From: Cyclobacteriaceae bacterium
GTDB taxonomy: Bacteria; Bacteroidota; Bacteroidia; Cytophagales; Cyclobacteriaceae
Assembly (NCBI GenBank): GCA_046317775.1
Contig: JBKCVO010000066.1
Coordinates: 7,872-71,871 of the forward strand
DNA: 64,000 bases
Reading direction: 5' to 3'
Part shown: piece by piece, positions 1 to 21,331 of the stretch
Numbering within the stretch: the first letter of the stretch is position 1
Layout: each line of letters opens with the position of its first letter
The notes under the pieces: model-generated
What the model was told of the DNA's origin: nothing
Database searches by the model: none
What the model saw: the letters and a program-made list of their open reading frames with translations, nothing else
Program-made: the position numbers and the translations under genes

Positions 1-107
1 TAAAGGAAAATGCACGCAAGGGTGGCACAGTGATACTTCTGGATAACTGTGATGAATTTAAAAATGACTGTACCAAATATATAAGGTATGAAATGGTGAG
101 CCGTTAG
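1..107 (+). CDS. 3' end of a hypothetical protein (partial, runs off the window)
   Basis: Open frame 3..107 (KENARKGGTVILLDNCDEFKNDCTKYIRYEMVSR*), followed by the same post-stop module as the other island genes. Confidence 0.55.
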   Translation, partial: KENARKGGTVILLDNCDEFKNDCTKYIRYEMVSR

Positions 108-120
108 AAGTAACTCCCTA

Positions 121-357
121 TTTATTTCTTTGCAGATCCTCCTAGGAACTCTGCGTGACACGCTACTTTACGCCAACCACCAATCCTGCCCATCCTGCAA
201 AACCTGATTCAGACAATTACAACAACACTTTTTTTGGAGGTGTGGGAGGGAAGTACGAAATTTGAACAAAGAGCCAACATAGATGTAAGTGAAACATCCG
301 CAAGTTTTGTATGCCAAGTTTCGCAGCAAAGATGTGCATACACTAATGTTGGAGGTA
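121..357 (+). repeat. Composite intergenic element, copy 1 (modules A+B+C)
   Basis: A = tttatttctttgcaga..ctctgcgtgacacgctactttac (121-171); B = aatcctgcccatcct..cctgattcagaca (182-215); C = tttttttggaggtgtgggagggaagtacgaaatttgaacaaagag...gatgtgcatacactaatGTTGGAGGT (GTT at 348). Confidence 0.85.
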
Positions 358-394
358 AATCATTTGACAGACACCAAGACCAATAATTATACAA

Positions 395-1024
395 ATGAGA
401 AAATTGATTTTAATGACATATTTAATTACAACTACTATGTTTAACATTTTTGGACAAGGAAAAGATAAATCCGAAAAGGAATTTAATAAAATTAAGTCAA
501 GAATATTTCCTGTAGTAAAAGTCGAGACTAGTGGAGAAAGTGGAAAGACTATGGAGTTTACAGCTGAGAACCAACCCGTATTCAAGAAAATAGCTGGAGA
601 CCTGTTATGCTTTTATGGAATAGACAAAGGAGATAATTTCGTTCTTTTAACAAAGAGTCAAATTCCAAGTTCTATATCAATGGACGACCTTGATAACATT
701 GCAAAGGAAAATTTATTAGAAGAAGTTCAGAGGAATTTAAAAATACATAAAACGGACTTTGGCGGACTTGGATTTACGTGTGGCGGCAATCATGAAGCTG
801 CACTTATTCTGCTACCTGAAATTTGGGGTGTCCTAATTGAAAAATTAGGTGAAAACATAGTATTTGGTGTGCCTGCCAAAGACATGAGCGTTTTTGTGAA
901 CGCTGACCAAACAGACAGCGTAAGTAAATTGCAAGAAATGATTAACGATATTCACAAAGACGGTAGCCGGCTCCTCAGCAAAAAATTGTTTAAATATAAA
1001 GCCGGACAAATTGAAGTGAACTAA
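395..1024 (+). CDS. Hypothetical protein, DUF1444-like, with signal peptide
   Basis: 209-aa ORF; hydrophobic N-terminus ending FG-Q; FTCGGNHEAALILLPEIW and VFGVPAKD segments resemble DUF1444-type proteins. Confidence 0.6.
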   Translation: MRKLILMTYLITTTMFNIFGQGKDKSEKEFNKIKSRIFPVVKVETSGESGKTMEFTAENQPVFKKIAGDLLCFYGIDKGDNFVLLTKSQIPSSISMDDLDNIAKENLLEEVQRNLKIHKTDFGGLGFTCGGNHEAALILLPEIWGVLIEKLGENIVFGVPAKDMSVFVNADQTDSVSKLQEMINDIHKDGSRLLSKKLFKYKAGQIEVN

Positions 1025-1090
1025 ACATGAACTACTCGTCTGGCACGGAAGTTAGAGGCTGTGTAAAAATCAAAAATCTCCCCGCTGCCA

Positions 1091-1170
1091 TTTTTATGTA
1101 TTTCTTCGCAGAGCCTCCTCCCAGGAACTCTGCGTGACACGCTACTTTACACTAAAAACCAATCCTGCCC
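1091..1170 (+). repeat. Composite element, copy 2 (module A + start of B)
   Basis: tatttcttcgcagagcctcctcccaggaactctgcgtgacacgctactttacactaaaaaccaatcctgccc aligns with copy 1. Confidence 0.85.
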
Positions 1171-1176
1171 GCTAGC

Positions 1177-1983
1177 GTGATGGACAAGCGAATATCCAAA
1201 ATAAAGAATGACGTGCAAGACAGAAAATCTGTTGCTTGGAAAAAACTCTGCGATTATGTTGACAAGGTTGCTATAGAAAACTATGACGAATTTTCCCCGC
1301 TAGAGGAACTTGGAGAAGAGTTGTTTGCTCAAATTCATACTTTGCCCGAGACAATCTCAAAACTCACAAAAGTTAAAAAGGTTTGGCTTTACGGCAGTAA
1401 ACTGAAGCGGATTCCACCGGAAATTGGACAGATGGAAGCACTTGAATATTTTGACCCATACACTTCATACGACCTGCATTGGTTTCCTTACGAAATTACA
1501 AAGTGCAAAAACCTTAAAGACAGTAGAGTAAGCACAAGAATATTGTATGGCAATTGGAAAAATAGAATGGGATTCCCTCGTTTAACTCATAATCCCGTTC
1601 GGTATTCAGGCGATACTTTGAATTGCAGTGTTTGTGGCAAGACTATAACTTATGAGCAAACAAATCAACTTTGGATTTCATTGAGGGTTGGAACGGATGT
1701 ATTACCTCTTTTGACAAATCTATGTTCAAAGGAATGTGAAGGTAAATTACCGACACCACCCAAAGACTACATACAATTTGCGCATAAAGGCGGTGCCGAA
1801 TTAGTACAACCTCCTGACGAAGATGAACTGTATGAAGTAGAAATGAAGAAAGAAGAGCATGAACAAGTTGAGGATGTAACAGTAATTAGTCAACCGGACA
1901 TTAACGAAGCTCCTTTAGACAATCCTACTGTAAAGAAAGGATTTTCAATGTTAAAGTTAATTAGAAAAATATGGGAGCAATAG
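1177..1983 (+). CDS. Leucine-rich-repeat-like protein with Cys cluster
   Basis: LRR-like LPETISKLTKVKKVWLYGSKLKRIPPEIGQMEALEYF; CSVC...CSKEC; acidic C-terminal tail. Confidence 0.65.
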   Translation: MMDKRISKIKNDVQDRKSVAWKKLCDYVDKVAIENYDEFSPLEELGEELFAQIHTLPETISKLTKVKKVWLYGSKLKRIPPEIGQMEALEYFDPYTSYDLHWFPYEITKCKNLKDSRVSTRILYGNWKNRMGFPRLTHNPVRYSGDTLNCSVCGKTITYEQTNQLWISLRVGTDVLPLLTNLCSKECEGKLPTPPKDYIQFAHKGGAELVQPPDEDELYEVEMKKEEHEQVEDVTVISQPDINEAPLDNPTVKKGFSMLKLIRKIWEQ

Positions 1984-2101
1984 AGTAAGTAAAATTCTTT
2001 CAAAAAAAATCTCTCTCTTTTGTAACCTTTCTCAAAAACCTTTGTAATCGTAGCATCAAAATACAACATGAGGTAGCAACTCTATTAAAAACAGAAACTA
2101 G

Positions 2102-3304
2102 ATGAAAAAAATAGTAACAATAATTTTAACCGTATGGAGTTTGGGGACATTTGCTCAAACGACTTCAAAAATTGGTAATTCATCACCCAACTTGGTATTT
2201 GAAAAAATAATCAACTTCAATCAAAATAAGGCAACCTTAGCCGATTTTAAAGGCAAAGTTGTTGTATTAGATTTTTGGGCTACTTGGTGCAGCCCCTGTA
2301 TAAAATCCCTACCCGAATTAGAAGCATTGCAAACTAAGTATCAATCTGATTTGCAGGTTATAACAATCACAAGTGACCCTGCCGAAAGAATTGAAAAGTT
2401 TTTAAGTAAAAAAGCGCTGAAGTTACCGGTTGTAATTGATGAACAGGGAAAATTAGCCACAGTTTTTCCACATCGTACTATTCCTCATACTATTGTTATT
2501 GACAAATCCGGTATAGTGAGAGCAATAACAAGTTCATCACAGATAACTGAAGAAATAATTAACAAAGTTATCAATGGTCAAGAAGTCAACATTACAGAAA
2601 AGAAAGAAGTAATGGATTTTGATCCTTCCAAACCTTTATCAGGCAACGAAAATTTTACATACCAAATTACCATTACACCATTTCAAGAAGGATACCCTTC
2701 ATTTTCAAACATTCATACGGGCGAAGGCTTTTATAAAAACAGACGAATTTATGCTACAAACCTTGGTCCCAAATCCTTATTTGAAATAGCCTATCAATTT
2801 CCTGTCTCCATCAGAACCATCGTAGAAGTAAAAGATTTCAATAAACTGAAATGGAATAAAGACAATGCAGTTTGTTTTGAATTAACTGTTCCTGATAAAT
2901 TGTCGGAACAGAGATTTGAAATAATGAAACAGCATTTGGATCTATACTTTGATTATAAAGCAGTAACAGAAGAAAGGCTAAGAAAAGTTATGGTGCTTAG
3001 ACAACTAAAAGATAGTCCGAAAATCGTATTAACAAAAAGTTCGGATAAGACAGAAGCTTCCGCAAGTTATAGTGGAAAGGGCTTGTCTATGAAAAATTCG
3101 CTTGTAAGCAAATTGGCAGAATTTCTTGAAAGCCAACTTGATATACCAGTTGTAGATGATTCGAATCTAATTGAAAAATATGATGTAGAGATAGCTTGGT
3201 ATAATGAAAATCCTCAACAGATACATCAAGAACTCAAAAAAGTAGGGCTTGAATTAGTATCTGAAGATCGAATGATTAAAGTTTTAGTCATCAAAGACAA
3301 ATAA
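2102..3304 (+). CDS. TlpA/redoxin-domain protein with additional C-terminal domain (DUF3738-like)
   Basis: Signal peptide; VVVLDFWATWCSPC thioredoxin-like motif. Confidence 0.8.
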   Translation: MKKIVTIILTVWSLGTFAQTTSKIGNSSPNLVFEKIINFNQNKATLADFKGKVVVLDFWATWCSPCIKSLPELEALQTKYQSDLQVITITSDPAERIEKFLSKKALKLPVVIDEQGKLATVFPHRTIPHTIVIDKSGIVRAITSSSQITEEIINKVINGQEVNITEKKEVMDFDPSKPLSGNENFTYQITITPFQEGYPSFSNIHTGEGFYKNRRIYATNLGPKSLFEIAYQFPVSIRTIVEVKDFNKLKWNKDNAVCFELTVPDKLSEQRFEIMKQHLDLYFDYKAVTEERLRKVMVLRQLKDSPKIVLTKSSDKTEASASYSGKGLSMKNSLVSKLAEFLESQLDIPVVDDSNLIEKYDVEIAWYNENPQQIHQELKKVGLELVSEDRMIKVLVIKDK

Positions 3305-3317
3305 AACACAAGTGCTT

Positions 3318-3474
3318 CGATTATGTTTGGGAAGGGACGGGCTACGAGATCACATCCAAGGAATAGGTATATCCATCATGAAGAAATACATTTGTCATTA
3401 AGCAGAGCCGTATGGAGACTTTCACGTACGGTTCCGTGAGAACCTAAGGCTGAAACTCCCTGGGGTGACTCGAC
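3318..3474 (+). mobile_element. 5'-truncated group II intron remnant (domains V-VI, class D/IIB-like)
   Basis: GAGCCGTATG..CACGTACGGTTC (3405-3434) is a domain V-like helix with the AGC triad, about 4 nt shorter than usual; followed by a domain VI-like stem ending GTGACTCGAC. Left boundary approximate. Confidence 0.8.
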
Positions 3475-3497
3475 TGGCGCACATTTGACTAAACGAA

Positions 3498-4714
3498 ATG
3501 AATAAAATTCTAACACTATTACTAGTTTTTACATGGGGTGCCTCTTCATCTCAAACTAAATTCAATTCGACCATAGAGTTCACCGATGATTTGACAAAAT
3601 TTCAAAGTTTGTCAAATTTCAAAAACACATTACAAAATGTTGAAATTATGGCGCTTGGAGAAAATACTCATGGGCTTGGAGAAGTGTTTACCGCAAAAAT
3701 TGAATTGGTCAAATTTTTACATGAAAAGTTAGGCTTTGATTTGATTCTATTTGAATCAGGATATGGAGACGCAGCAATGGCTTGGGAAAAATTAGATGCT
3801 CTATCAGCCAAAGAATTTACAAGTATTTTTAGCTCAAACTTTTATTATAATTCAGAGGAAATTGAAAAACTGGTAGATTACGTAAAATCAAAGGAGGGTA
3901 AGTTAAAAATACAAGGTTTCGATTGCCAACCACAACAAAATTATCTAATAAAACGAATGACCGAAATAGCTCAGCGAATAGATTCCATATTAGCTAAATC
4001 AGTTGCAGTAGAAATGAAAAAATTTAACAACCTTTATCAATTTGAGAACGACAAAGACACAATTTCATTCAATAAACAACGAGATAATTTTATTAACTTT
4101 TTGCACAAGTACAACGATTTTGTAATTAAAACAATACTGAATTATTAAATTCAGGAGTGACAAAAAATGAAATAAGTGCTTTAAAAAAATCAAACGAGAT
4201 ATTCATAAAAACGTATTCTACAATTAAAATTGGAGAATTGATGAGTTGGCCTTTGTCGGCAAATAGTAGAGATAAGGCACTATTTGAAATCGTAAAATCG
4301 TTCAAAGACGAATACCCTGAATTAAAAATTATTATTTGGGCACAAAACAGCCATATTGAAAATAAGCCAAAGCCCAATTATACTGTAAATTGGATGGGGC
4401 ATTATCTTAAGAATACTTTTGACGATAAATATTATTCAATTGGGACGGTTGTTTATAGTGGAAAAAACTTAACCTACAATGGAACTTTCGATTTTGAGCA
4501 CAAAGACACCAATCATCTTGCATATCATCTTAACCGATTTGGAAAAGAAAAATTTGTGATAGACTTAAGAAAATACAACAAAAATGATTTTACCAAAGAA
4601 CTTCTTTTAGGAATGGAAAGCAATGGAAATATGGCAGAATTCGTTGCAAAAGACAGATTTGATGGCCTGCTTTTTGTTAAGTATAGTGGTGTTCCCAAGT
4701 TGATAAAAAAATAA
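3498..4714 (+). pseudogene. Erythromycin esterase family protein, frameshifted
   Basis: MALGENTHG..LFESG in 3498..4148 and IIIWAQNSHI..YYSIG in 4157..4714; adding one A in the AAAA at 4128-4131 joins them into a 405-aa ORF. Confidence 0.8.
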
Positions 4715-4727
4715 AACACATTATGCC

Positions 4728-4926
4728 TTTATTTCTTCGCAGTCTCCTACTAAGGACTCTGCGTGACACGCTACTTTACACTAACAACAAAACCTGCCCA
4801 TCCTAAAATCTTGCATATCCTGATTCAGACAGCGTGCAGTCTACACATTTCGCAATCCGCTCCGCCCATTAACTATTAACAACTTTTTTTGGAGGAGTGG
4901 AGCGGAAGAGCGAGATTTGAACAAAT
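4728..4926 (+). repeat. Composite element, copy 3 (A+B+left part of C)
   Basis: tttatttcttcgcag..ctctgcgtgacacgctactttacactaac; cctgcccatcctaaaatc..cctgattcagaca; tttttttggaggagtggagcggaagagcgagatttgaacaaa. Confidence 0.85.
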
Positions 4927-5016
4927 GCACGAAAATTAATCACGCGTACATTTTAATGGAACCATGTGCTTATACAACTGGTAATAATACCAGTGCAAAA
5001 ATTATTGTAAGATTTA

Positions 5017-5967
5017 ATGACAACACTTATCACGAAAAGACACCCTATTAAGTTTTATTTGGTTTTAGTTTTTGCGTTTCTATTTCTTTGCGGGTTAGGC
5101 ACGTTGTTAATGTTCGTTGGCATTGACCTTTTACAAAAGGAACAACATGCCACTAAAGACTATTTATCACCTGTTTTCAGTTTTCTGTTTTACTTTCTGG
5201 CAGTTTCAATGGTTTACATTTACTGGAAAATGTCACCAATAATTACCATCGACAAGCATACCATCGTTTTTGGAACACAAACATTTTATTTAAAGAACAT
5301 TAAAGATGTTAGACTTACAGGAAAGATGCCATTCCGTTATTACTTCATGACATTTCCAATGGAAGGAACTGCAATAACTTTCAATGACGGAACAGAAATA
5401 CTTTTATTTGATGATATGTATTCTAATAGTTGGGAAATAAAATCATTTCTAGAGCAGACAGTTATCAATAAACAAGAATACAAACCAAAGTTGATAGAAA
5501 GTGTGGTTAGAAATGTGCCATATCGAGATGAAGATGTGTTTAAAGGAAATCAATTCACAAGCCTAAGAGGAATTTCGCTTTGGGGAGTTATTGGTTTTTT
5601 TATTATTATGTTGTTTAGTAAAGGAAATCCGCCTATTGCGTTATTTGTATTTTTGGGAGTATTCAGTACTTTTTGGTTTATCCTGAGTTCATGGATGATG
5701 CACTACTTTGTAGTGACAAATGATTTCTTAATTATTAAAAATCATAATTTTTTATGGATGACTAAAATTTATCCACTCTCAGAAGTTAAGGAGATTGTTT
5801 ATGAAACACAAGAAAAGCAACCAAACTCGATGAGAGTGATAACAAAAGATTTTAAGAATAAATTGTATCGGGCAGGGACGTTGAGAGACAGTACTTGGTT
5901 GGACATGAAGAAAGAACTAGAAAGAAATAAAATAAAGGTTAGAAACGAGTGTATTTTTGAAGACTAG
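5017..5967 (+). CDS. Hypothetical membrane protein (two TM-pair plus soluble-domain modules)
   Basis: 316-aa ORF with two hydrophobic helix pairs, each followed by a beta-rich PH-like segment. Confidence 0.7.
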   Translation: MTTLITKRHPIKFYLVLVFAFLFLCGLGTLLMFVGIDLLQKEQHATKDYLSPVFSFLFYFLAVSMVYIYWKMSPIITIDKHTIVFGTQTFYLKNIKDVRLTGKMPFRYYFMTFPMEGTAITFNDGTEILLFDDMYSNSWEIKSFLEQTVINKQEYKPKLIESVVRNVPYRDEDVFKGNQFTSLRGISLWGVIGFFIIMLFSKGNPPIALFVFLGVFSTFWFILSSWMMHYFVVTNDFLIIKNHNFLWMTKIYPLSEVKEIVYETQEKQPNSMRVITKDFKNKLYRAGTLRDSTWLDMKKELERNKIKVRNECIFED

Positions 5968-6012
5968 CTGAGCTGTTCGCCTTACACGTAGAGGCTTGGC
6001 CGCAAAGCCATA

Positions 6013-6025
6013 TTTATTTCTTCGC
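6013..6025 (+). repeat. Left end of module A only
   Basis: tttatttcttcgc matches the start of module A, directly after gccata. Confidence 0.5.
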
Positions 6026-6113
6026 GGGGGTAGGCGGGATTGCTAGCTTCGATTGAAATACGCTGCTTCCGTTTAGTCTATCCAGAATCAGAAATTCATA
6101 AATTTGCGATCAC

Positions 6114-6554
6114 ATGAAGAACTGGGTAGTACTATTATTCCTGATTTCAGCTTTCACAGCGTCCGGGCAGGTTAACAAATCAGCATTGTTTGGTAGATGG
6201 ATTTGCACAAACAAGGACAGCGCCTATTACACGAGCAAGTATATTGTGTTTTACAGCGACACCACTTTTATTCGTAAAAGTAATCAGTGTGAATTTGTCA
6301 CTTGGGAAATCAACGCAGAAAAGCTTTATATTATGACGTGGACTGAGTGCCTTCCTGATGGAAAGGTTCATATGAGCTTTTATTTTTCAAAACCTCGGCT
6401 TCAGCTAAACTTAAAGAAGGTGCGGAGAAAGAAGATTATTGAATTGGTAAGAGGGAAGGAGGTAATTGAACAATTTAAAATAATAGAGTTCAGCGAACAG
6501 CGGGTGGACAAAGATTCACAGGTTATTAAAATCTTAAAGCTAAAGCGGATTTGA
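6114..6554 (+). CDS. Hypothetical secreted protein
   Basis: 146-aa ORF; signal peptide ending ASG-Q; TAAATTTG (-7-like box) at 6099-6106. Confidence 0.65.
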   Translation: MKNWVVLLFLISAFTASGQVNKSALFGRWICTNKDSAYYTSKYIVFYSDTTFIRKSNQCEFVTWEINAEKLYIMTWTECLPDGKVHMSFYFSKPRLQLNLKKVRRKKIIELVRGKEVIEQFKIIEFSEQRVDKDSQVIKILKLKRI

Positions 6555-6873
6555 AATTTTCGTTTTTCTTCCTCAAGCACTGACACAATCCGCAGAAACA
6601 CGCGTTTTGATTTACACACTCTGACTCCGTTAGGCGTAAAGACTCCTCCAAGGTGTCAGATGCTTTTTCTTCTTTTTATCCTTGTTTGCTTAGTTCTATA
6701 GCCGTCTCACACCTGCTTAGCGTTTCACAAACCGAGAATTCAGCGTATATGCACAGCCGCTGCGCAAGGGTGAAACAGAGATAATCTGCTTTGCTCAATA
6801 ATTTTTCTGACTGAACTGTATCTTTTCGGTGACTTTGCCATTTTAGTATGTAAAGAACGCAAACTGCTAAAAA

Positions 6874-8112
6874 ATGAAGAAACTCCTATTTGTTCTACTT
6901 ATTATTTTGGGGGCTTGCGAGAGCCAAAACCCATTCCCATATCTCCCTTACCAGCAGCAAAACACTTCAGAGGTAGCCTATGTCAAATTGGCGAAATCAA
7001 TCGCTACCAATTCCAAAGGGGTTATAGCCAATGGACTGAATTATGTGGAGCTAGAGGTTTTGGCTTTTAATAAGTTGGACATTGGTGTGCCGTTGTATGA
7101 TTCAAAGAATGATATAATCGAAGTGCAAACAAATGGAAAGAACTTTCAACTGAGGTACCCCTTTCGATTTAGTACCACAGAAAAGGGCAGCTATTCATTT
7201 CGGTTGAAACCCAACTCCATTCCTGTCCGCGATGTCAATATTGAAATAACTGCGATCGAGCCTGTTCTATTTCGCCCCACAGTACTTCCTGTGATTTTTC
7301 ACTATTTTAATCATACAGCAAAGCCCTTATCAAATTCTCAAAAAGATTCGGTGTCAAATTATCTGTCAAAGTTAGTGGGATGGTCCAACAAGGATTTCAG
7401 TAACTTGTCTGGATCAATAGATCCGAATGCAAGTGACACTGGCATTCAACTGCAAATGGCAAAGAACGATATTCAAGGTGCTGCATTAACATGGGCGGGC
7501 GTTAACTTTATTGAAACGGGCGGCACTTCATTTCAATCAACGAAAGATTTTGAGGATTATACCTGGCAAAATTGCTTTTGGCCTCCGAAGAAGTACATAA
7601 ATGTATGGGTTGCGTTAGCTCCCTACTTTGATCCGAAATTAAACGGCTTTAGCTGGGCGTACTTTCCCGACTTCATCCAAGGATCAAGTGCCTATCCACC
7701 GGGTCTTTATGGTGTGATGTTACATCAGAGAAGTGCCTTCTCGTCTTTATTATCTCACGAGATAGGTCATATGCTAAATTTGTTTCATGTATTTGGCGAC
7801 TGCACCAGAGATGCTGATGAATGTGCAGACACATGGAGTTATTATAGGACAGTTTATGACGATCAAAGTAAATTTTCGATCGAGAAAACGAGCTGCTCTT
7901 CAGAGAGGTTTATTTCAACTAACTTGATGGACTATGGACCATCCTGGAATAATACCTTCACGTTACAGCAGGCTCTTCTTATTCAACAAACCTTAAAAGA
8001 ATGTTCATTCTTGCCAACCAAACGAAATGGGTATATACATGGGCGAGCCTTTGAAGATGCCGAAAGACCAACGAAAGCAATGGTTTCAGACAAAACGAAA
8101 TTGGTGCTGTAA
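6874..8112 (+). CDS. M43-like zinc metallopeptidase lipoprotein
   Basis: Lipobox LGAC; HEIGHMLNLFH zinc motif; NLMDY Met-turn. Confidence 0.85.
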   Translation: MKKLLFVLLIILGACESQNPFPYLPYQQQNTSEVAYVKLAKSIATNSKGVIANGLNYVELEVLAFNKLDIGVPLYDSKNDIIEVQTNGKNFQLRYPFRFSTTEKGSYSFRLKPNSIPVRDVNIEITAIEPVLFRPTVLPVIFHYFNHTAKPLSNSQKDSVSNYLSKLVGWSNKDFSNLSGSIDPNASDTGIQLQMAKNDIQGAALTWAGVNFIETGGTSFQSTKDFEDYTWQNCFWPPKKYINVWVALAPYFDPKLNGFSWAYFPDFIQGSSAYPPGLYGVMLHQRSAFSSLLSHEIGHMLNLFHVFGDCTRDADECADTWSYYRTVYDDQSKFSIEKTSCSSERFISTNLMDYGPSWNNTFTLQQALLIQQTLKECSFLPTKRNGYIHGRAFEDAERPTKAMVSDKTKLVL

Positions 8113-8237
8113 TATTCGCGTTTACATAAAGCTGGAATATAAAAAGCTAGCAATCTGCAACCAGCACCCAATATCAGCCTCTGATCGCTGTCCAAGCTAT
8201 CCTTAGTCCGCGATTAAGCATCCCCAAATTTCTCCAA

Positions 8238-8443
8238 TGACACTTTACCTAACACATCCCTTTTCACTTTAACCATCATCCTGCCCATCCTAAAATCCTA
8301 AAATCCTGATTCAGACAATTACGACAACACTTTTTTGGGAGGAGTGGAAGAGAAGCACGAAATTTGAACAAAGAGTCAGCGGATGTAAGTGAAATATCCG
8401 CAAGTTTCACAGTAAAAGATGCGCGTATCCTATGTTGGCGGTT
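8238..8443 (+). repeat. Composite element, copy 4 (degenerate A tail + B + full C)
   Basis: tgacactttacctaaca; atcctgcccatcctaaaatcctaaaatcctgattcagaca; ttttttgggaggagtggaagagaagcacgaaatttgaacaaagag...gatgcgcgtatcctatGTTGGCGGT (GTT at 8434). Confidence 0.85.
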
Positions 8444-8538
8444 ATGGTAAAATAACACGCTAAAAATGCTAAAACACTTTAAACCTTTGGGAAAATAAAT
8501 TATCTAAGGGTTGTGTTAAACTAAATGTCAGAATAATT

Positions 8539-9609
8539 ATGAAGTCGTCTACAATTCTTTTATTGCTGTTACTATCAATTTCGAGTTGTAGTAAAAATGA
8601 TGATGTTGTTCAACCTACAACATCAGAATCTATGTATTTCCCTTCCAATACAAATACTACTTGGGAAACGAAACCGCTTTCAAGTTTAGGTTGGAATCAA
8701 AACGCAATCCAACCGCTGAAAGATTTTCTTACGCAAAAAAACACAAAATCATTTATGATTCTTGTAAATGGAAGAATTGTAATGGAAGAATATTTTAATG
8801 GTCATTCTTCAAACACTACTTGGGAATGGAACAGTGCAGGTAAAACCTTAGTTGCAACTACAACGGGAATCGCACAACAAGAAGGACTATTGAACATTAA
8901 CAACAAAGCATCTGATTATTTGGGAACGGAATGGACGAGTATGCCCTTGGCAAAAGAAAACTTAATTTCCGTAAAAGATTTACTAATAATGACAGTAGGC
9001 AATGATGATACAAAACAATATGTTGTTAAAGCCAACTTAACGTATGTTGCAGACGCAGGAACGCGGTGGGCGTACAGCAATATTTTTCAAAAATTAACCG
9101 ATGTTGTTGCCGGTGCAAGCAATAAACCTTTTGAAACATATTTTAATGAGAAATTAAAAAACAAAATTGGAATAGATGGATTTTGGGAGTTTGGAACAAT
9201 CTTTACCATATACCATAGCACCACCAGAAGTATGGCAAGGTTTGGTCTTATGGCATTGGCGAAAGGAAAATGGAATAACGAACAAATTATAAATGAGACT
9301 TTTTTTAATGAAAGCATTTCAACCTCTCAAAATATCAATCCTTCTTATGGATATTTATGGTGGTTAAATGGAAAAACTAGTTTTATGATTCCGGGTGAGC
9401 AAACAGTTTATCAGGGATACTTGATTCCAAATGCACCTGCTGATATGTATTCGGCAATGGGAGCGAATGACCAACGAATTTATGTAATACCAAGTAAAAA
9501 AATGGTAATTATAAGAATGGGAGATGCGTCTGACCCTGCAAACCCAAATTTTGCGGTTTCCGGTTTTGACAACGAACTTTGGGGCAAAATAAATGCTGTC
9601 ATAAATTAA
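8539..9609 (+). CDS. Serine hydrolase (class C beta-lactamase-like family) lipoprotein
   Basis: Lipobox ISSC; SAGK (SxxK); YSN motif; YGYLWWLN. Confidence 0.85.
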   Translation: MKSSTILLLLLLSISSCSKNDDVVQPTTSESMYFPSNTNTTWETKPLSSLGWNQNAIQPLKDFLTQKNTKSFMILVNGRIVMEEYFNGHSSNTTWEWNSAGKTLVATTTGIAQQEGLLNINNKASDYLGTEWTSMPLAKENLISVKDLLIMTVGNDDTKQYVVKANLTYVADAGTRWAYSNIFQKLTDVVAGASNKPFETYFNEKLKNKIGIDGFWEFGTIFTIYHSTTRSMARFGLMALAKGKWNNEQIINETFFNESISTSQNINPSYGYLWWLNGKTSFMIPGEQTVYQGYLIPNAPADMYSAMGANDQRIYVIPSKKMVIIRMGDASDPANPNFAVSGFDNELWGKINAVIN

Positions 9610-9827
9610 AGAAGCCTACTAAGCCTCTGCACTGTCAAAGAAGAACTTCGTCTCCGGGTCAGAATTTCTATGGAGTGCAGAAATAAAATACGTGTAAAAT
9701 CGATCTCGAATGTGACTCATACTTAAACTTTCATTTAAGGTAAATTATTTACCTACTGTTTTAAAAAAGAAATTTGTTTTCTAAAGTATCTGCTATACAT
9801 ACGACTTTGCGTTAGCGGCAGTATACT

Positions 9828-10310
9828 TTACAGTCGCCTTTTGGGTCTTGGCTTCGTACTGTCAACAATGGTTTTAATAGCCTTTTGAACCTGCTTATCC
9901 AAATCCTTTAATTTGTTGATGCTGTGGATCACATTCCTTTTCTTACCAAGAGTCAAACCGTCAAAAATCTCTTTGAGCGCTTTATCCTGTTCTAAAATGG
10001 TCTCAAGTACTTCAGGCATTTCTACACCCAATGGATTAGGATCTTCCTTTAGAGAAAAGTTAACTTTTTTACCTAAAGTTTTATCAAGCGCTTTTAGGTT
10101 TTTGGTCGAAAGAATAATAAAAAAATCACCTTCGCCTAAATGGTTTAACCCACACTGAAATGAAACGAGTTTATCAAGTGTGCAAATAAAACGAGTATGC
10201 CTCTTATTTTTAAATTTGTTCACAATGTCCGATTCAATTTTCAAATAAAAATAGCCACCCTTTCTCTTTTCGAGTTGCTTAATTATTTGTTCGCCTTTGT
10301 AAGTCTTCAT
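9828..10310 (-). CDS. DUF1905 / YdeI-OmpD-associated family protein
   Basis: GEGDFFIILS..DPNPLGVEMPEVL..LTLGKKRNVIHSINKLK pattern. Confidence 0.75.
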   Translation of the reverse strand: MKTYKGEQIIKQLEKRKGGYFYLKIESDIVNKFKNKRHTRFICTLDKLVSFQCGLNHLGEGDFFIILSTKNLKALDKTLGKKVNFSLKEDPNPLGVEMPEVLETILEQDKALKEIFDGLTLGKKRNVIHSINKLKDLDKQVQKAIKTIVDSTKPRPKRRL

Positions 10311-10553
10311 TTTAATTCAATGCACGTTTTTAATTTATGGAGATTATATAGATACAAAGAGTGAGTCCCATCATGCCCGATAGATCAGGCAACAGAAGAC
10401 TCCTTTTTTTAGCGTTCAAACCACAAATTTATGTTTCTTTTTTCTGACGAAATAGGGTTAAGTAAAAACGTCTTGCAACACAAAACTCCAAGTCCCAAGT
10501 CCTAAGCCCCAACTCCAAGTCCTAGTTCCCAATACGCGTTTTGTTAAGATTTT

Positions 10554-10680
10554 ATGACAAGACTTTTTTTGGAGGTGTGGGAGGGAAGAACGAGATTTGG
10601 TATAACAAAGAGCAATCGACTATAAGAGAAATAAGCGCAAGTTTTTTGGAAAACATGCGCATATGCTAATGTTGGTGGTC
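10554..10680 (+). repeat. Composite element, copy 5 (module C)
   Basis: tttttttggaggtgtgggagggaagaacgagatttgg...catgcgcatatgctaatGTTGGTGGT (GTT at 10671). Confidence 0.85.
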
Positions 10681-10731
10681 ATTGTAAGAAGACCTACAAA
10701 AATATAAAGCCGACCAAGAACAGAGAAGGAA

Positions 10732-11169
10732 ATGGAAATAAAAAAACTTAATTCAGACAGTTTAACAGACTTCAAATCTTTAATAGAAATTTTCAAAGAG
10801 GTTTTTGAAAATGATGAGCCTATTGCTAATGACGAGCATTTAGGAAAATTGCTATCTAACCCTGACTTTTTTGTGTTTGTTGTAATGACTAATAGTAAAG
10901 TGGTAGGCGGACTTACAATTTATGTACTGCATAGATACTATGGCACAAAACCGATTGCATATATTTATGACGTGGGAGTTAGCCACGACTACCAAGGACA
11001 AGGATTAGGCAAAGCACTCATAGCCACAGCGTGTAATTTCTGCAAAAAGAATGACTTTGAAGATGCTTATGTAGAAGCGGAAAGTGACGACATTTACGCA
11101 GTGAATTTTTATAGAAAGACCAAATTTAGCTCTGAACTAAAAGCAATACACTTTACTTATGACCTTTGA
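10732..11169 (+). CDS. GNAT N-acetyltransferase (AAC(3)-I-like subgroup)
   Basis: YIYDVGVSHDYQGQGLGKALI acetyl-CoA motif; YVEAESDD..AVNFY. Confidence 0.8.
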   Translation: MEIKKLNSDSLTDFKSLIEIFKEVFENDEPIANDEHLGKLLSNPDFFVFVVMTNSKVVGGLTIYVLHRYYGTKPIAYIYDVGVSHDYQGQGLGKALIATACNFCKKNDFEDAYVEAESDDIYAVNFYRKTKFSSELKAIHFTYDL

Positions 11170-11238
11170 GGCAAACAATGATAAAAAAACCGAAACCGTT
11201 ATCGGTCATTTTACCGATTAACGAATAAGCATTAACGC

Positions 11239-18703: not shown

Positions 18704-19708
18704 ATGAAAAAATCATTTGTGTGGATTTTGTGCTGCTTTTTCAGTGCTGCATTGTCACAAGCACAGACTAATCCGCTCCTCAAAAAATATGCAGGTGCGT
18801 ATTACTTACTCAACTTTGGTGAAGAGACTCCAAACGCAGCAACGGAGAAAATTAATTTGACAGCCGATGGTAAATGGACGAGTGTAAGTTTTGTGATGGA
18901 TGAAGATGGGAAAGTTTCAAAAGTGCCGGTAAAAAAATCTGGTACATGGAAGGGAGCAGAAGGCACTATTCAATTAGCGGAAGTAGGATCTTCTGCTCTA
19001 AATGAATTTAAGTTGGACGCTGGTATATTTTTAGGAAGTAGTTCGTATCTGCAAAAGATTTTTGTTTCCAGTCCGGTGTATGTAGCTAAATATGCAGGCA
19101 CCTTTCTCTTGCTGGGTGCAGATGAAGAAAAACCAACGGACTATACCGAAACCATTACACTCAAAGCAGATGGAAAATGTACACGGTCAACTCCTGCAGT
19201 CGATGACAACGGAGTAATTGGCAAAACCCCGATCATTGTGCAGGGAACGTGGAAAGCGAATGAAGGGACGCTGCAAATCACCTTTCCGGTATTGGAGCAA
19301 TTGCGCATGACGGAGTTCGTTTTCAAAGAAGGAAAATTTGTAGATCGTGGCGGAAACTATTTGAAGAAGCCGGTTCGCGCAGCACCTACCGTGAATCTCC
19401 TGCCAAAGCATGCAGGGTCTTACTATCTGTTAGTGGAGGGTCAGGCGCCAACACCCAAGTCCGATAAATATGTATTGACCCCCGATGGAAAAGGTACGTG
19501 GACGTATTTTAAAGAAGATGGCACAGCAGTGGTAACCAAAGGCACGTGGAAATCAAGCGAAGGGTTGATTCAACTGAATTTTAGCACAGGCGAAGAGGGG
19601 ATGGGGCAAGAGCTGCTAACAGATTTCAGATGGAAGGATGGTGCATTTCGCGCGGAGAATGTTTATCTAAAAAAGATCGAATCCAAACCTACAACTATAA
19701 AAAAATAA
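18704..19708 (+). CDS. Secreted protein with three tandem ~100-aa repeats
   Basis: Signal peptide; three units K[YH]AG.[YF].LL...L..DGK...GTWK..EG..Q....F...YL.K. Confidence 0.8.
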   Translation: MKKSFVWILCCFFSAALSQAQTNPLLKKYAGAYYLLNFGEETPNAATEKINLTADGKWTSVSFVMDEDGKVSKVPVKKSGTWKGAEGTIQLAEVGSSALNEFKLDAGIFLGSSSYLQKIFVSSPVYVAKYAGTFLLLGADEEKPTDYTETITLKADGKCTRSTPAVDDNGVIGKTPIIVQGTWKANEGTLQITFPVLEQLRMTEFVFKEGKFVDRGGNYLKKPVRAAPTVNLLPKHAGSYYLLVEGQAPTPKSDKYVLTPDGKGTWTYFKEDGTAVVTKGTWKSSEGLIQLNFSTGEEGMGQELLTDFRWKDGAFRAENVYLKKIESKPTTIKK

Positions 19709-19730
19709 ATTCATTCAACATCACTAACCC

Positions 19731-20303
19731 ATATCCTCTACAACTATTATTCCCATTCTGATCATTATTGGCATTGTCATTCTGATTCCGATTTTTATTT
19801 ATAACGGCCTCATTACTTCGCGCAGTGCAGTCGAAAGTGCTTTCGGAAGTATTGATGCGATGCTCAAAAAACGCTACGACCTCATCCCCAACTTGGTGGA
19901 GTCAGTGAAAGTATACATGAAACACGAGAAAGACACACTGATTCAGGTAACGGAACTTCGCACCAAAGCGGTCTCAGGATCTGTAACCACCGAAGAGAAA
20001 GTGGCCATTGACAACCAGCTTTCTTCTATGATGCGAAAAGTAATGGTATCGGTAGAAAGTTATCCCGATTTAAAGTCCAGCGAACAATTTACCATGCTAC
20101 AACGCAGTTGGAACGAAGCCGAAGAGCAAATTGCTGCCGCACGCAGAGCCTATAATTCTGCGGTTACCCAATATAACAACGCCATCGAAAAGTTTCCCTC
20201 CAATATACTCGCAGGTATGTTTGGTCATACACGGAAAAATGTGTTTGAAATTCCGCAAGCCGAGCGCGAAAACATCAGTGCGAAAAACTTATTTGGTAAT
20301 TGA
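19731..20303 (+). CDS. lemA: LemA family protein (N-terminal TM helix lies upstream of the first ATG)
   Basis: SIDAMLKKRYDLIPNLVESVK, ESYPDLKS, AARRAYNSAVTQYN, FPSNILAGMFG; in-frame TM segment from ATA at 19731. Confidence 0.85.
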   Translation: MSSTTIIPILIIIGIVILIPIFIYNGLITSRSAVESAFGSIDAMLKKRYDLIPNLVESVKVYMKHEKDTLIQVTELRTKAVSGSVTTEEKVAIDNQLSSMMRKVMVSVESYPDLKSSEQFTMLQRSWNEAEEQIAAARRAYNSAVTQYNNAIEKFPSNILAGMFGHTRKNVFEIPQAERENISAKNLFGN

Positions 20304-20308
20304 TCAAT

Positions 20309-21331
20309 ATGAAAACGACAGAATCGTTTCAGTCATTTTATCAAACCACACTTACTTCGATCGTGAATGCGTTAGATGTGGAGCGAAAGGAGATGGTAAA
20401 GAAGATTTACATGGCGGGTGCTGCCGCTGTCATCTTTGTCATTCTCTACGGCATGATCAACAAGTCTACCGTCCGCGAAACGCAACTCGGACCGAATGGC
20501 CCCACACAATACACCTATACCGGTGGATACTCCGGTGCAATCTTTTATATCGCGATTGCCGGTGTGTTGGGTTATTTCTTTTGGTATCGTCCGAGGGCAA
20601 AGAAGTTTAGAAGCCGGTTTAAGAATGAAATCATCCGAAGAATCATTAAGCATGCAGATGAAAAATTAGAATACCATCCGGAGGCAGGTATTTCGGTAAC
20701 GGACTTTATTCAAAGCACTATTTTTGATACCGCGGGTGATCGTTACTTATGTGAAGATTTGGTGAGTGGAAAAATCGGCAGCACCACTATTCGCTTTTCG
20801 GATGTGCAAACGCAGCGCAAGAAAGAGCTGAAAGGCGATGATGGTGCACCTGATTTTAAGCGATGGGTCACACTTTTTAAAGGGATAATTTTTGTTGCCG
20901 ACTTCAACAAGCATTTCAAAGGACGCACCATGGTGCTCACGGATCAAGCCGAAAAATCATTGGGCGGTTTGGGTACTTTCTTTCAAAAAATGAATGCCCA
21001 ACGCGACCCGCTGGTCAAAATGGAGAATACCGATTTTGAAAAAGCGTTTGTGGTCTATGCTTCCGATGCCGTGGAGGCACATTACATCCTGACACCCGCA
21101 TTGATGGAACGCATGCTGAATCTTCGCTCTCGGTTGGGAAACGTGCAGTTTGCGTTTTATAACTCGGTAGTGTTTATTGCCATCCCCACAAAGAATGATC
21201 TTTTCGAAGCAAACATCTTCCGTCCTTTAACAGTACAAAGTGAAATGGAAAAGTATTTTGTACAGCTTCAGTTCTTTACGGGCATCGTAGAAGACCTCAA
21301 CCTCAACAACCGCATTTGGACGAAGGAGTAG
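20309..21331 (+). CDS. DUF3137 domain protein
   Basis: Two TM helices; TLFKGIIFVADFNKHFKGRT, FEKAFVVYASD..EAHYILTPALMERML; typical LemA neighbour. Confidence 0.85.
   Translation: MKTTESFQSFYQTTLTSIVNALDVERKEMVKKIYMAGAAAVIFVILYGMINKSTVRETQLGPNGPTQYTYTGGYSGAIFYIAIAGVLGYFFWYRPRAKKFRSRFKNEIIRRIIKHADEKLEYHPEAGISVTDFIQSTIFDTAGDRYLCEDLVSGKIGSTTIRFSDVQTQRKKELKGDDGAPDFKRWVTLFKGIIFVADFNKHFKGRTMVLTDQAEKSLGGLGTFFQKMNAQRDPLVKMENTDFEKAFVVYASDAVEAHYILTPALMERMLNLRSRLGNVQFAFYNSVVFIAIPTKNDLFEANIFRPLTVQSEMEKYFVQLQFFTGIVEDLNLNNRIWTKE

Follow-up and report, generated by a model that had tools for sequence, protein, structure and literature searches.

The 64,000-nucleotide stretch of Cyclobacteriaceae DNA that we analyzed (hereafter the window) carries, between two genes, a sequence of about 150 bases that we take, with a probability of roughly 85%, to be an inactive 3' remnant of a group II intron. 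The remnant consists of a domain IV stub followed by domains V and VI, and its parent appears to be a class D/IIB-like lineage that inhabits cassette arrays of the Cytophagales. It is a fragment and not a complete intron. Taken by itself, the window element is an ordinary dead fragment, and the novelty lies in the association of its family with attC recombination sites. An earlier annotation made from the nucleotide sequence (the original prediction) had proposed both the intron and its target, and its main inferences about the intron were checked on relatives of the window copy.

Group II introns begin with a 5' GUGYG end and domains I-IV, and their hallmark is a 34-nt domain V hairpin with an AGC triad, a 2-nt bulge and a tetraloop, followed by a domain VI that contains a bulged A and has ..AY as its 3' terminus. 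A local Rfam scan with the Intron_gpII model of domains V and VI (RF00029) produced a match at positions 3403-3474 on the plus strand with a score of 39.3 bits and an E value of 2e-6, and the alignment reaches model position 77 of 77 at window position 3474. The gathering score of this model is 40, so a scan of the whole window at the Rfam gathering threshold returns no intron match. Thus, the covariance-model scan suggested in the original prediction gave a match that falls just under the cut-off. Comparison by blastn gave a clearer result. Window positions 3344-3476 are 88% identical to the relative L092 (E 1.6e-45) and 85% identical to the relative L088 (E 1e-40), and overall the homology to complete introns of one family amounts to 85-88% identity over 131-141 nt. 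The matched part corresponds to positions 616-755 of the 755-nt L088 intron, and the remnant as a whole to approximately the last 140-165 nt of this 755-nt form.

The boundaries of the remnant differ in how sharply they can be drawn. Homology to the intron is firm from 3344 and probably extends upstream to about 3322, where the motif GGGAAG occurs; the original prediction had placed the start at 3318, which is close to where homology fades but lies ahead of both of these positions. At the other end, the intron terminates at 3474 with ...GGGGTGACTCGAC, ACTCGAC, and TGGCGCAC (3475-3482) follows directly, with the ATG of the next open reading frame (ORF) at 3498, 23 nt beyond the intron end. From the stop of the upstream ORF (2102-3304) to the start of the downstream ORF (3498-4148) the distance is 193 nt. 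The original prediction had described this succession of intron end, core-like octamer and gene start correctly in every respect.

The window copy retains the AGC triad and the proximal helix of domain V as well as the ..CGAC 3' end. Its domain V (3405-3434) measures 30 nt compared with 34 nt in relatives, in agreement with the predicted shortfall of about 4 nt; the missing bases are AAGG, and the RF00029 alignment places the 4-nt gap in the distal stem. Since AAGG forms the 5' strand of the distal helix, the hairpin with the GAGA tetraloop cannot form. In domain VI, AAGGG has become AAGGC and CCCTT has become CCCTG, each change breaking one stem pair, and the linker between domains IV and V has lost 3-4 nt. 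Domains I-III and the intron's 5' end are absent from the window, and no other intron or reverse transcriptase (RT) sequence was found anywhere in its 64 kb, as had been stated beforehand. The copy is a dead relic with neither catalytic nor mobile capacity.

An exact scan for the window's 30-nt domain V returned no match; the deletion is private to the window copy, and a gapped pattern is required. With the gapped pattern we obtained 119 loci, from which blastn singled out a group of close relatives (L092, L088, L109, L019, L035, L061, L029 and others) in metagenome-assembled genomes (MAGs) of Cyclobacteriaceae, Cytophagales, Chryseolinea and other Bacteroidota. In these relatives domain V is 34 nt long (GAGCCGTATGAAGGGAGACTTTCACGTACGGTTC) with a GAGA tetraloop, and the introns end in ..GGGTGACTCGAC in all cases. 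The relatives' 3' ends score 59-60.5 bits on RF00029, the L088 and L092 introns score 76-82 bits on RF01999 (domains I-IV), and the 5' intron end is GTGTG. The search for full-length copies was likewise productive, in that the L181 intron is 1923 nt long, starts with GTGTG and ends with CGAC. The 755-nt elements in L088 and L092 start with GTGTGTCTTGAAC and have no RT ORF. In L029 and L181, domain IV of this intron is enlarged by an insertion of 1.17 kb, which codes for a 405-aa RT/maturase.

The ORF-less elements share one deletion, which brings the initial ~12 codons of the RT ORF next to its final ~5 codons in the form ..ACGAGATCACAGCCAA^GGAA^TTGGTATATCCATGA.., where carets mark the joins. 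The two halves of this junction lie 1.17 kb apart in the full-length L029 intron. The same junction is present in the window at 3346-3375, where the first RT codons ACGAGATCACATCCAA (..TRSQP..) are joined to the last codons GGTATATCCATCATGA (..VYP and stop) before the sequence continues into the linker to domain V, and the L092 form of the junction, CAGCCAA^GGAA^TTGGTATATCC, is found there as well. Therefore, the window copy descends from the ORF-less lineage, and it has no RT gene because of this older ORF deletion and a later 5' truncation.

We then considered where the family inserts. An attC site is recognized as an imperfect inverted repeat with an R'' box (RYYYAAC), an R' box (GTTRRRY) and paired L''/L' arms. 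Sixteen of 19 family 5' junctions lie at the 3' end of such an attC-type palindrome (...CAAACGT^). In most copies the 5' exons are alike over ~127 nt, and a profile of this exon family (nhmmer matches up to 119 bits) also finds unoccupied copies. The L147 contig has five of them within 4.7 kb, L146, L181 and L186 have several, and their spacing is that of cassette boundaries. The unoccupied sites read ...AAACGT^TGGCGG or ...AACGT^TGTGGG, with R' of the form GTTRRRY. One of them, CCGCCAAC-AATGTGCATAATCAATGGCGGGG...CCCGCCACTGCTTATGCACAAACGT^TGGCGG, illustrates the arrangement, with CCGCCAAC as an R'' box of the RYYYAAC type, GT^TGGCGG as an R' box of the GTTRRRY type and imperfectly complementary arms. 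One unoccupied site folds into a single long hairpin (z = -5.8), and in an RNAalifold analysis of eight sites AAC pairs with GTT and the L''/L' arms pair with each other, with compensatory changes in 7 of 16 pairs. Judged by these features, the target sites of the family are attC-type sites.

The point of insertion is constant. It always falls past ..ACGT, between the second and third bases of the GTT of the top-strand R' core, so that the canonical G^TT crossover lies 1 nt to its 5' side. The 12 distinct 3' exons open with T(G/A)G or T(G/A)T, as in TGGCAGTAAT, TAGCGGCAAT and TGTAGCCAAT, compared with TGGCGCACAT in the window. Insertion at GT^T of the top-strand core, which the original prediction had deduced from the window junction, is thus borne out by the relatives' junctions, their 3' exons and the unoccupied sites. 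At most readable junctions the downstream ORF is on the intron's strand, and the window remnant is likewise on the same strand as the ORFs that flank it. Only the 3' remainder of R' (T GGCGCA) survives at the window junction.

IIB introns recognize their exons by pairing of exon-binding sites (EBS) with intron-binding sites (IBS), namely EBS1-IBS1, EBS2-IBS2 and EBS3-IBS3. In an alignment of the family's introns, two loops are complementary to the 5' exon: one at approximately position 298 (CCUCGUAA-NNNN-AAAG), which corresponds to EBS2, and one at approximately position 330 (UU-ACGUUUG-U), which corresponds to EBS1. EBS1 (ACGUUUG) pairs with exon positions -7 to -1 (CAAACGU) at 5-7 of 7 positions in the four copies with an extracted loop. 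EBS2 pairs with exon positions -11 to -8 at 4 of 4 positions in all six copies for which both sides are known, and these copies represent three states, UGUU:AACA (L088, L144, L163 and L181), GCUA:UAGC (L092) and UGUA:UACA (L135). Compensatory changes also occur in the stem below EBS1, and the +1 base of the 3' exon is T in all copies. Complementarity between the intron and attC cores, which had been put forward as a check, is thus observed for both elements. CTCGTAA was at one point taken for EBS1; this was wrong, as that loop is EBS2.

These data suggest a pathway by which the window sequence could have arisen. The intron RNA would recognize an attC-type 3' end by base pairing through EBS1 and EBS2 and would reverse splice into the top strand, at the GT^T position within R', mostly in the sense orientation of the next gene. 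Priming from the nascent strand at the replication fork is established for the class D intron RmInt1, and by analogy the RT of this family presumably primes cDNA synthesis in the same way. The ORF-less 755-nt derivative would have spread, presumably mobilized in trans, and one ORF-less copy would have homed into an attC located between the thioredoxin-like and esterase cassettes of the window. A later deletion, reaching as far as the upstream stop codon, would have removed this attC together with ~590 nt from the beginning of the intron. The C-terminus of the upstream ORF is complete, so such a deletion would have ended past the stop codon; the Pfam profile DUF3738, 190 positions long, is matched over positions 43-187, and the match extends to residue 397 of the 400. 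Small deletions and substitutions may then have wrecked domain V and weakened domain VI, bringing the copy to 15% divergence. The remnant would thus be the scar of a former attC R' site. With an intron at GT^T the R' box is split, and integrase-mediated recombination at the junction would probably have been blocked.

The stretch between the upstream stop codon and the firm intron homology is where the attC and the ~590 nt of 5' intron sequence would be expected, and both are missing. There is no attC after the upstream ORF, and no structure is predicted for 3305-3345 (fold z 0.58). In a MAFFT alignment, GGGAAG within this stretch aligns with L092, L088 and L161 and is followed by a replaced segment; positions 3322-3343 (TTTGGGAAGGGACGGGCT) probably derive from the part of intron domain IV that immediately preceded the start codon of the lost RT.

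An alternative history, which we regard as unlikely though deserving of serious consideration, is that the remnant arrived already truncated on the 5' end of the esterase cassette, or that recombination between two intron copies fused unrelated stretches. Given that insertion occurs 1 nt past the G^TT crossover, the intron would be physically part of the downstream cassette and could travel with it. Broken or internally deleted family copies are common (L129, L161, L186 and L163). In addition, the array is absent beside rsmB in the two closest genomes (L203 and L204; UBA5008, which is labelled Flammeovirgaceae, and a Cyclobacteriaceae MAG; RsmB identity 91-92%), as expected for recently acquired or variable DNA, although synteny with these genomes does not reveal an empty site. 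On the other hand, no second copy of the esterase cassette was found, with or without an intron, and four strain variants (L120-L123) are identical across the remnant region, so there is no polymorphism by which to order the events. This alternative alters the history of the element only, and not its identity.

The class of the intron was examined using the RT of the relative L029, the window itself having none. Class D (IIB3) introns encode an RT-X protein that lacks the DNA-binding/endonuclease (D/En) region and has a class D C-terminal extension. IIC introns encode a class C RT and have no EBS2, and their IBS1 is 3-5 nt long. The 405-aa family RT contains RVT_1 and GIIM domains only (TIGR04416, 402 bits) and no endonuclease domain. 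In tblastn searches of plasmid records its best full-length matches are from Aquicella (48% identity, class unknown), Paracoccus denitrificans PD1222 (19605-20831; 41.6%, 328 bits), Shigella (38.4%) and Sinorhizobium (38%, 294 bits), while intron RTs that are widespread on plasmids of Klebsiella, Escherichia and Enterobacter match at only 33% over 80% of the length. The RmInt1-like Sinorhizobium RT (L201; 419 aa when counted from its ATG) can be aligned with the family RT over the whole length at 38% identity, including the ..LF(A/V)HW tail. The Paracoccus match falls within Pa.de.I1 (CP000491 19065-20924), an intron entered under class D in the table of Toro and Martinez-Abarca (PMC3552965, Table S1). 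The same table lists RmInt1 and Sh.dy.I1 as class D together with members from Cytophagia and Flavobacteria, among them Leadbetterella and Zunongwangia, and the C-terminal extension is described as a signature of the ORF class (PMC3552965). On the basis of its best full-length matches and its C-terminal tail, we assign the family as class D/IIB-like and not IIC, which agrees with the class that had been proposed from the window sequence.

We consider it very unlikely that the element is instead of the IIC type and recognizes the attC hairpin as a structure, in the manner of IIC-attC introns or of a top-strand IIC intron from Enterobacter cloacae. The target is indeed a hairpin-forming palindrome, the RT lacks an endonuclease domain, and the best solved-structure matches of the family RT are IIC enzymes, namely the GsI-IIC RT (181 bits) and the Eubacterium rectale IIC RT (169 bits). 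That ranking is not diagnostic, however, because the RmInt1-like class D RT from L201 ranks the solved structures in the same order and no class D RT is present among the solved-structure matches. Over its full length the family RT is nearer to class D references. Moreover, the family has an EBS2 loop that covaries with the exon, which is a IIB feature and argues against IIC, and its 7-nt IBS1 exceeds the length given above for IIC introns. The IIC interpretation of the RT was accordingly dropped in light of the plasmid tblastn search, the class D table, the reciprocal search and the EBS2 covariation.

Still less probable is co-option of the domain V/VI hairpins as a terminator, insulator or promoter for the esterase gene. 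IIC-attC introns do provide downstream cassettes with outward promoters (PMC3001079), and the remnant lies 23 nt upstream of a start codon, but its conservation does not extend beyond near-identical strains, the downstream gene is frameshifted in the window, and the mutational decay resembles that of neutral sequence. A chance resemblance to a group II intron, for which only the sub-threshold RF00029 score could speak, has a negligible probability, since the identity to genuine introns is 85-88% along 131 nt (E 1e-40 to 1e-45) and there is a common RT-deletion junction that falls outside domains V and VI.

Several observations weigh against the reading of the window element as the scar of a class D intron in an attC site. 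Truncation may have occurred at insertion or by later deletion. The class D call comes from best hits and the C-terminal tail. The window copy has no 5' exon, so its own original target is unreadable and only the 3' half (TGGCGCAC) is left. A tblastn search with an IntI1 sequence gave no IntI match in the window or in the 8 kb of its contig (L120) that precede it, the canonical 127-nt attC profile has no match in the window, and the other junctions of the window carry a different, longer repeat with weak attC character (fold z -0.4 to -2.8).

The surroundings of the remnant nonetheless resemble a cassette array. Window positions 1-11200 have a G+C content of 33-40%, compared with 44-46% elsewhere in the window, and contain ten co-oriented, unrelated ORFs that encode thioredoxin-like, erythromycin-esterase-like, M43 peptidase, beta-lactamase-fold and GNAT proteins and several proteins without a Pfam match. 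Upstream of the window, L120 has one more such ORF followed by PorP/SprF, a CHU_C protein and GSDH, and no recombinase was seen in this upstream part. The region thus looks like an integrase-less, degrading cassette cluster, for which we use the label CALIN-like (an attC-site cluster that has no integron integrase) in a putative sense. Since only the 3' exon half is kept and no integrase was found, support for the cassette interpretation of this array, for which the original prediction had offered the intron as independent evidence, is indirect.

The loci with close intron relatives were also searched with the IntI1 sequence, and tblastn gave no IntI match in them. A more distant class D-like intron, whose RT ends in ..MFYHWQL, was observed in a Chitinophagaceae MAG (L063, 2340-4200, minus strand), and beside it, at 4479-5402, is a Xer-like tyrosine recombinase with IS91-family transposases on its flanks. 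This recombinase was rejected as an IntI, as it is Xer-like and IS91-associated and scores 160 against the cut-off of 265 of the integron-integrase model TIGR02249.

The coordinates of the parts of the junction and of related features are collected in the table.

Table. Features of the intron remnant junction, the intergenic repeat of the window and selected intron copies in relatives
Feature	Location	Strand	Basis or remark
Upstream cassette-like ORF, 400 aa, thioredoxin/AhpC-TSA + DUF3738	window 2102..3304	+	Pfam AhpC-TSA and Redoxin matches
Junction stretch, stop codon to firm intron homology	window 3305..3343	+	MAFFT alignment with L092, L088 and L161
Domain IV remnant with RT-deletion junction	window 3344..3404	+	blastn homology from 3344; junction common with L092
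Domain V, 30 nt: GAGCCGTATG, 4-nt gap, GAGACTTTCACGTACGGTTC	window 3405..3434	+	RF00029 alignment; 34-nt form in 12/12 close relatives
Domain V-VI linker and domain VI, to 3' splice site ...GTGACTCGAC^	window 3435..3474	+	Alignment with relatives; RF00029
3' exon = 5' leader of downstream cassette	window 3475..3497	+	Relatives' 3' exons; unoccupied sites
Erythromycin-esterase-like gene, downstream cassette	window 3498..4714	+	Pfam Erythro_esteras on both halves
Composite intergenic repeat	window 100-356, 4725-4985, 8270-8448, 10540-10678	+ only	Partial copies at 1095-1170 and 6010-6040
ORF-less intron copy, 755 nt	L088 6167-6921	-	Single common deletion junction
ORF-less intron copy	L092 1825-2581	-	Single common deletion junction
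Mini-copy, ~170 nt	L186 7773-7942		5' ~57 nt fused to 3' ~114 nt
Intron copy with 23-nt insertion inside domain V	L161 1-191		

The 3' exon of the window opens with T GGCGCA, which is what is left of an R' core (GT^TGGCGCA). Next comes CATTTGAC, and this motif is found at equal distance in other cassette starts; the unoccupied sites compared read TGGCGGTCATG.. and TGGCAGCAAT.., and window positions 349-372 read GT^TGGAGGTAAATCATTTGAC. More generally, a leader motif of the form ..(T/C)NGAC(A/T).. lies approximately 10-22 nt past the GTT core and is common to cassette starts, including window 3475-3497 and 349-372 and the cassette starts of L147, L146, L109 and L181 (for example, CATTTGACTAAAC in the window, and TCATTTGACAGAC, TTTCTGGACAATG and TTAAACGACTGC). 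This motif could extend the recombination site or could serve as a signal for expression. The esterase gene downstream is represented in the window by 216-aa and 185-aa ORFs, a single A being missing near 4128, and it is intact (405 aa) in the strain variant L122. The frameshift is either a real pseudogene mutation or an assembly error in a homopolymer run.

The composite repeat at other junctions of the window comprises a hairpin TTTCTTCGCAGAG..CTCTGCG, ATCCTG repeats followed by CCTGATTCAGACA, and then TTTGGAGGTGTGGGAGGGAAG..GAAATTTG, the last of which occurs in four copies compared with 0 expected by chance. Its terminus reads ..CTAATGT^TGG(A/C/T)GG, and pairing of R'' with R' is kept only in the copy at 272-356. 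These repeats were not called as attC sites, given that they have no profile match and form weak or no whole-element hairpins. The composite repeat has no match in Rfam. It also adjoins canonical attC sites in L019, and in L129 it comes after position 180 of a broken intron and has, at its end, its own ATCCTG..CAGACA segment repeated in inverted orientation. Candidate explanations are that it is a long attC variant, a promoter module or an element resembling a miniature inverted-repeat transposable element. The low-GC island as a whole spans ~12 kb (window 1-11200 plus L120 7170-8320) and holds 11 co-oriented, unrelated ORFs between porP/sprF and rsmB; its first junction (L120 ~7390-7455) contains a short hairpin ending in GGGTTGTAGGCAAT that resembles a simple attC or attI-type boundary.

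Among known systems, the family is most similar to class D (IIB3) introns such as RmInt1/Sr.me.I1 of Sinorhizobium meliloti and Pa.de.I1 of P. denitrificans. They have in common an RT of ~405-419 aa without D/En, a C-terminal extension (...LFAHW), 38-42% RT identity over the full length, a total intron length of ~1.9 kb and exon recognition through EBS1 and EBS2. The listed class D introns mostly have insertion sequence/transposase genes or non-coding DNA as targets (PMC3552965). In contrast, this family homes to the L'-R' end of attC, which provides many targets per array, and it has a proliferating ORF-less derivative. One class D intron, Vi.vu.I1, is entered in that same table as residing in a Vibrio vulnificus cassette array ("Hypothetical", "CI cassette"; PMC3552965, Table S1).

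Group IIC-attC introns (S.ma.I2 and relatives) are likewise mobile group II introns in attC sites whose RT has no endonuclease. Their insertions are in the bottom strand, as already noted in the original prediction, and run antisense relative to the cassettes (PMC3001079). This family does not follow that mode: it uses the top strand at GT^T of R', lies mostly in sense, pairs through EBS1 and EBS2 and has a class D-like RT. Class C introns in general insert at DNA structural motifs such as terminators and attC, which they choose in place of a homing site (Zimmerly and Semper, PMC4424553). The E. cloacae intron, a single reported case in the top strand of a clinical class 1 integron (Rodriguez-Martinez et al. 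2012, J Bacteriol 194:150, as cited in PMC7923331), is set apart from this family by the citing description, which gives it as class C. A comparable arrangement is that of the IIB introns UHB.I2, H.ha.F1 and H.ha.F2 of halophile integrons and CALINs (Sonbol & Siam 2021, PMC7923331), which share the cassette orientation, the position just past attC and the occurrence of 5'-truncated domain V and VI fragments in an integrase-less array. Their RTs are of the CL1 type or class E, and their exons show no sequence conservation (PMC7923331), whereas the present family has a class D-like RT, many independent insertions at one R' site and EBS/IBS covariation. In the literature we found no account of class D introns that home to a defined site within the attC R' core, or of such a lineage in Bacteroidota.

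Taken together, these comparisons lead us to a broader proposal whose chances of being right and wrong we judge to be about level. A class D lineage in Cytophagales would have adopted, for homing, the L'-R' end of attC on the top strand; it would retarget between attC variants by changes in EBS2, spawn ORF-less copies, ride on cassettes, freeze junctions and contribute to the decay of arrays into integrase-less clusters. This would constitute an independently evolved second association of introns with integrons, opposite to the IIC-attC introns in strand, in orientation and in how the target is recognized.

Few integrons have been described in complete Bacteroidota genomes (PMC9024848), and the loci analyzed here add a concrete case of cassette arrays in this phylum. 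The window copy is functionally inert, but remnants of its kind can serve as annotation markers of former attC sites in degraded arrays. Because an intron in the R' box should block the integrase, the family also suggests an idea for how arrays freeze. Until now, group II introns in integrons have been regarded mainly as a specialty of class C, with bottom-strand, antisense and structure-guided insertion. If class D introns do home to the top-strand R' core by base pairing, then attC sites would have been colonized by group II introns at least twice, and in opposite ways.

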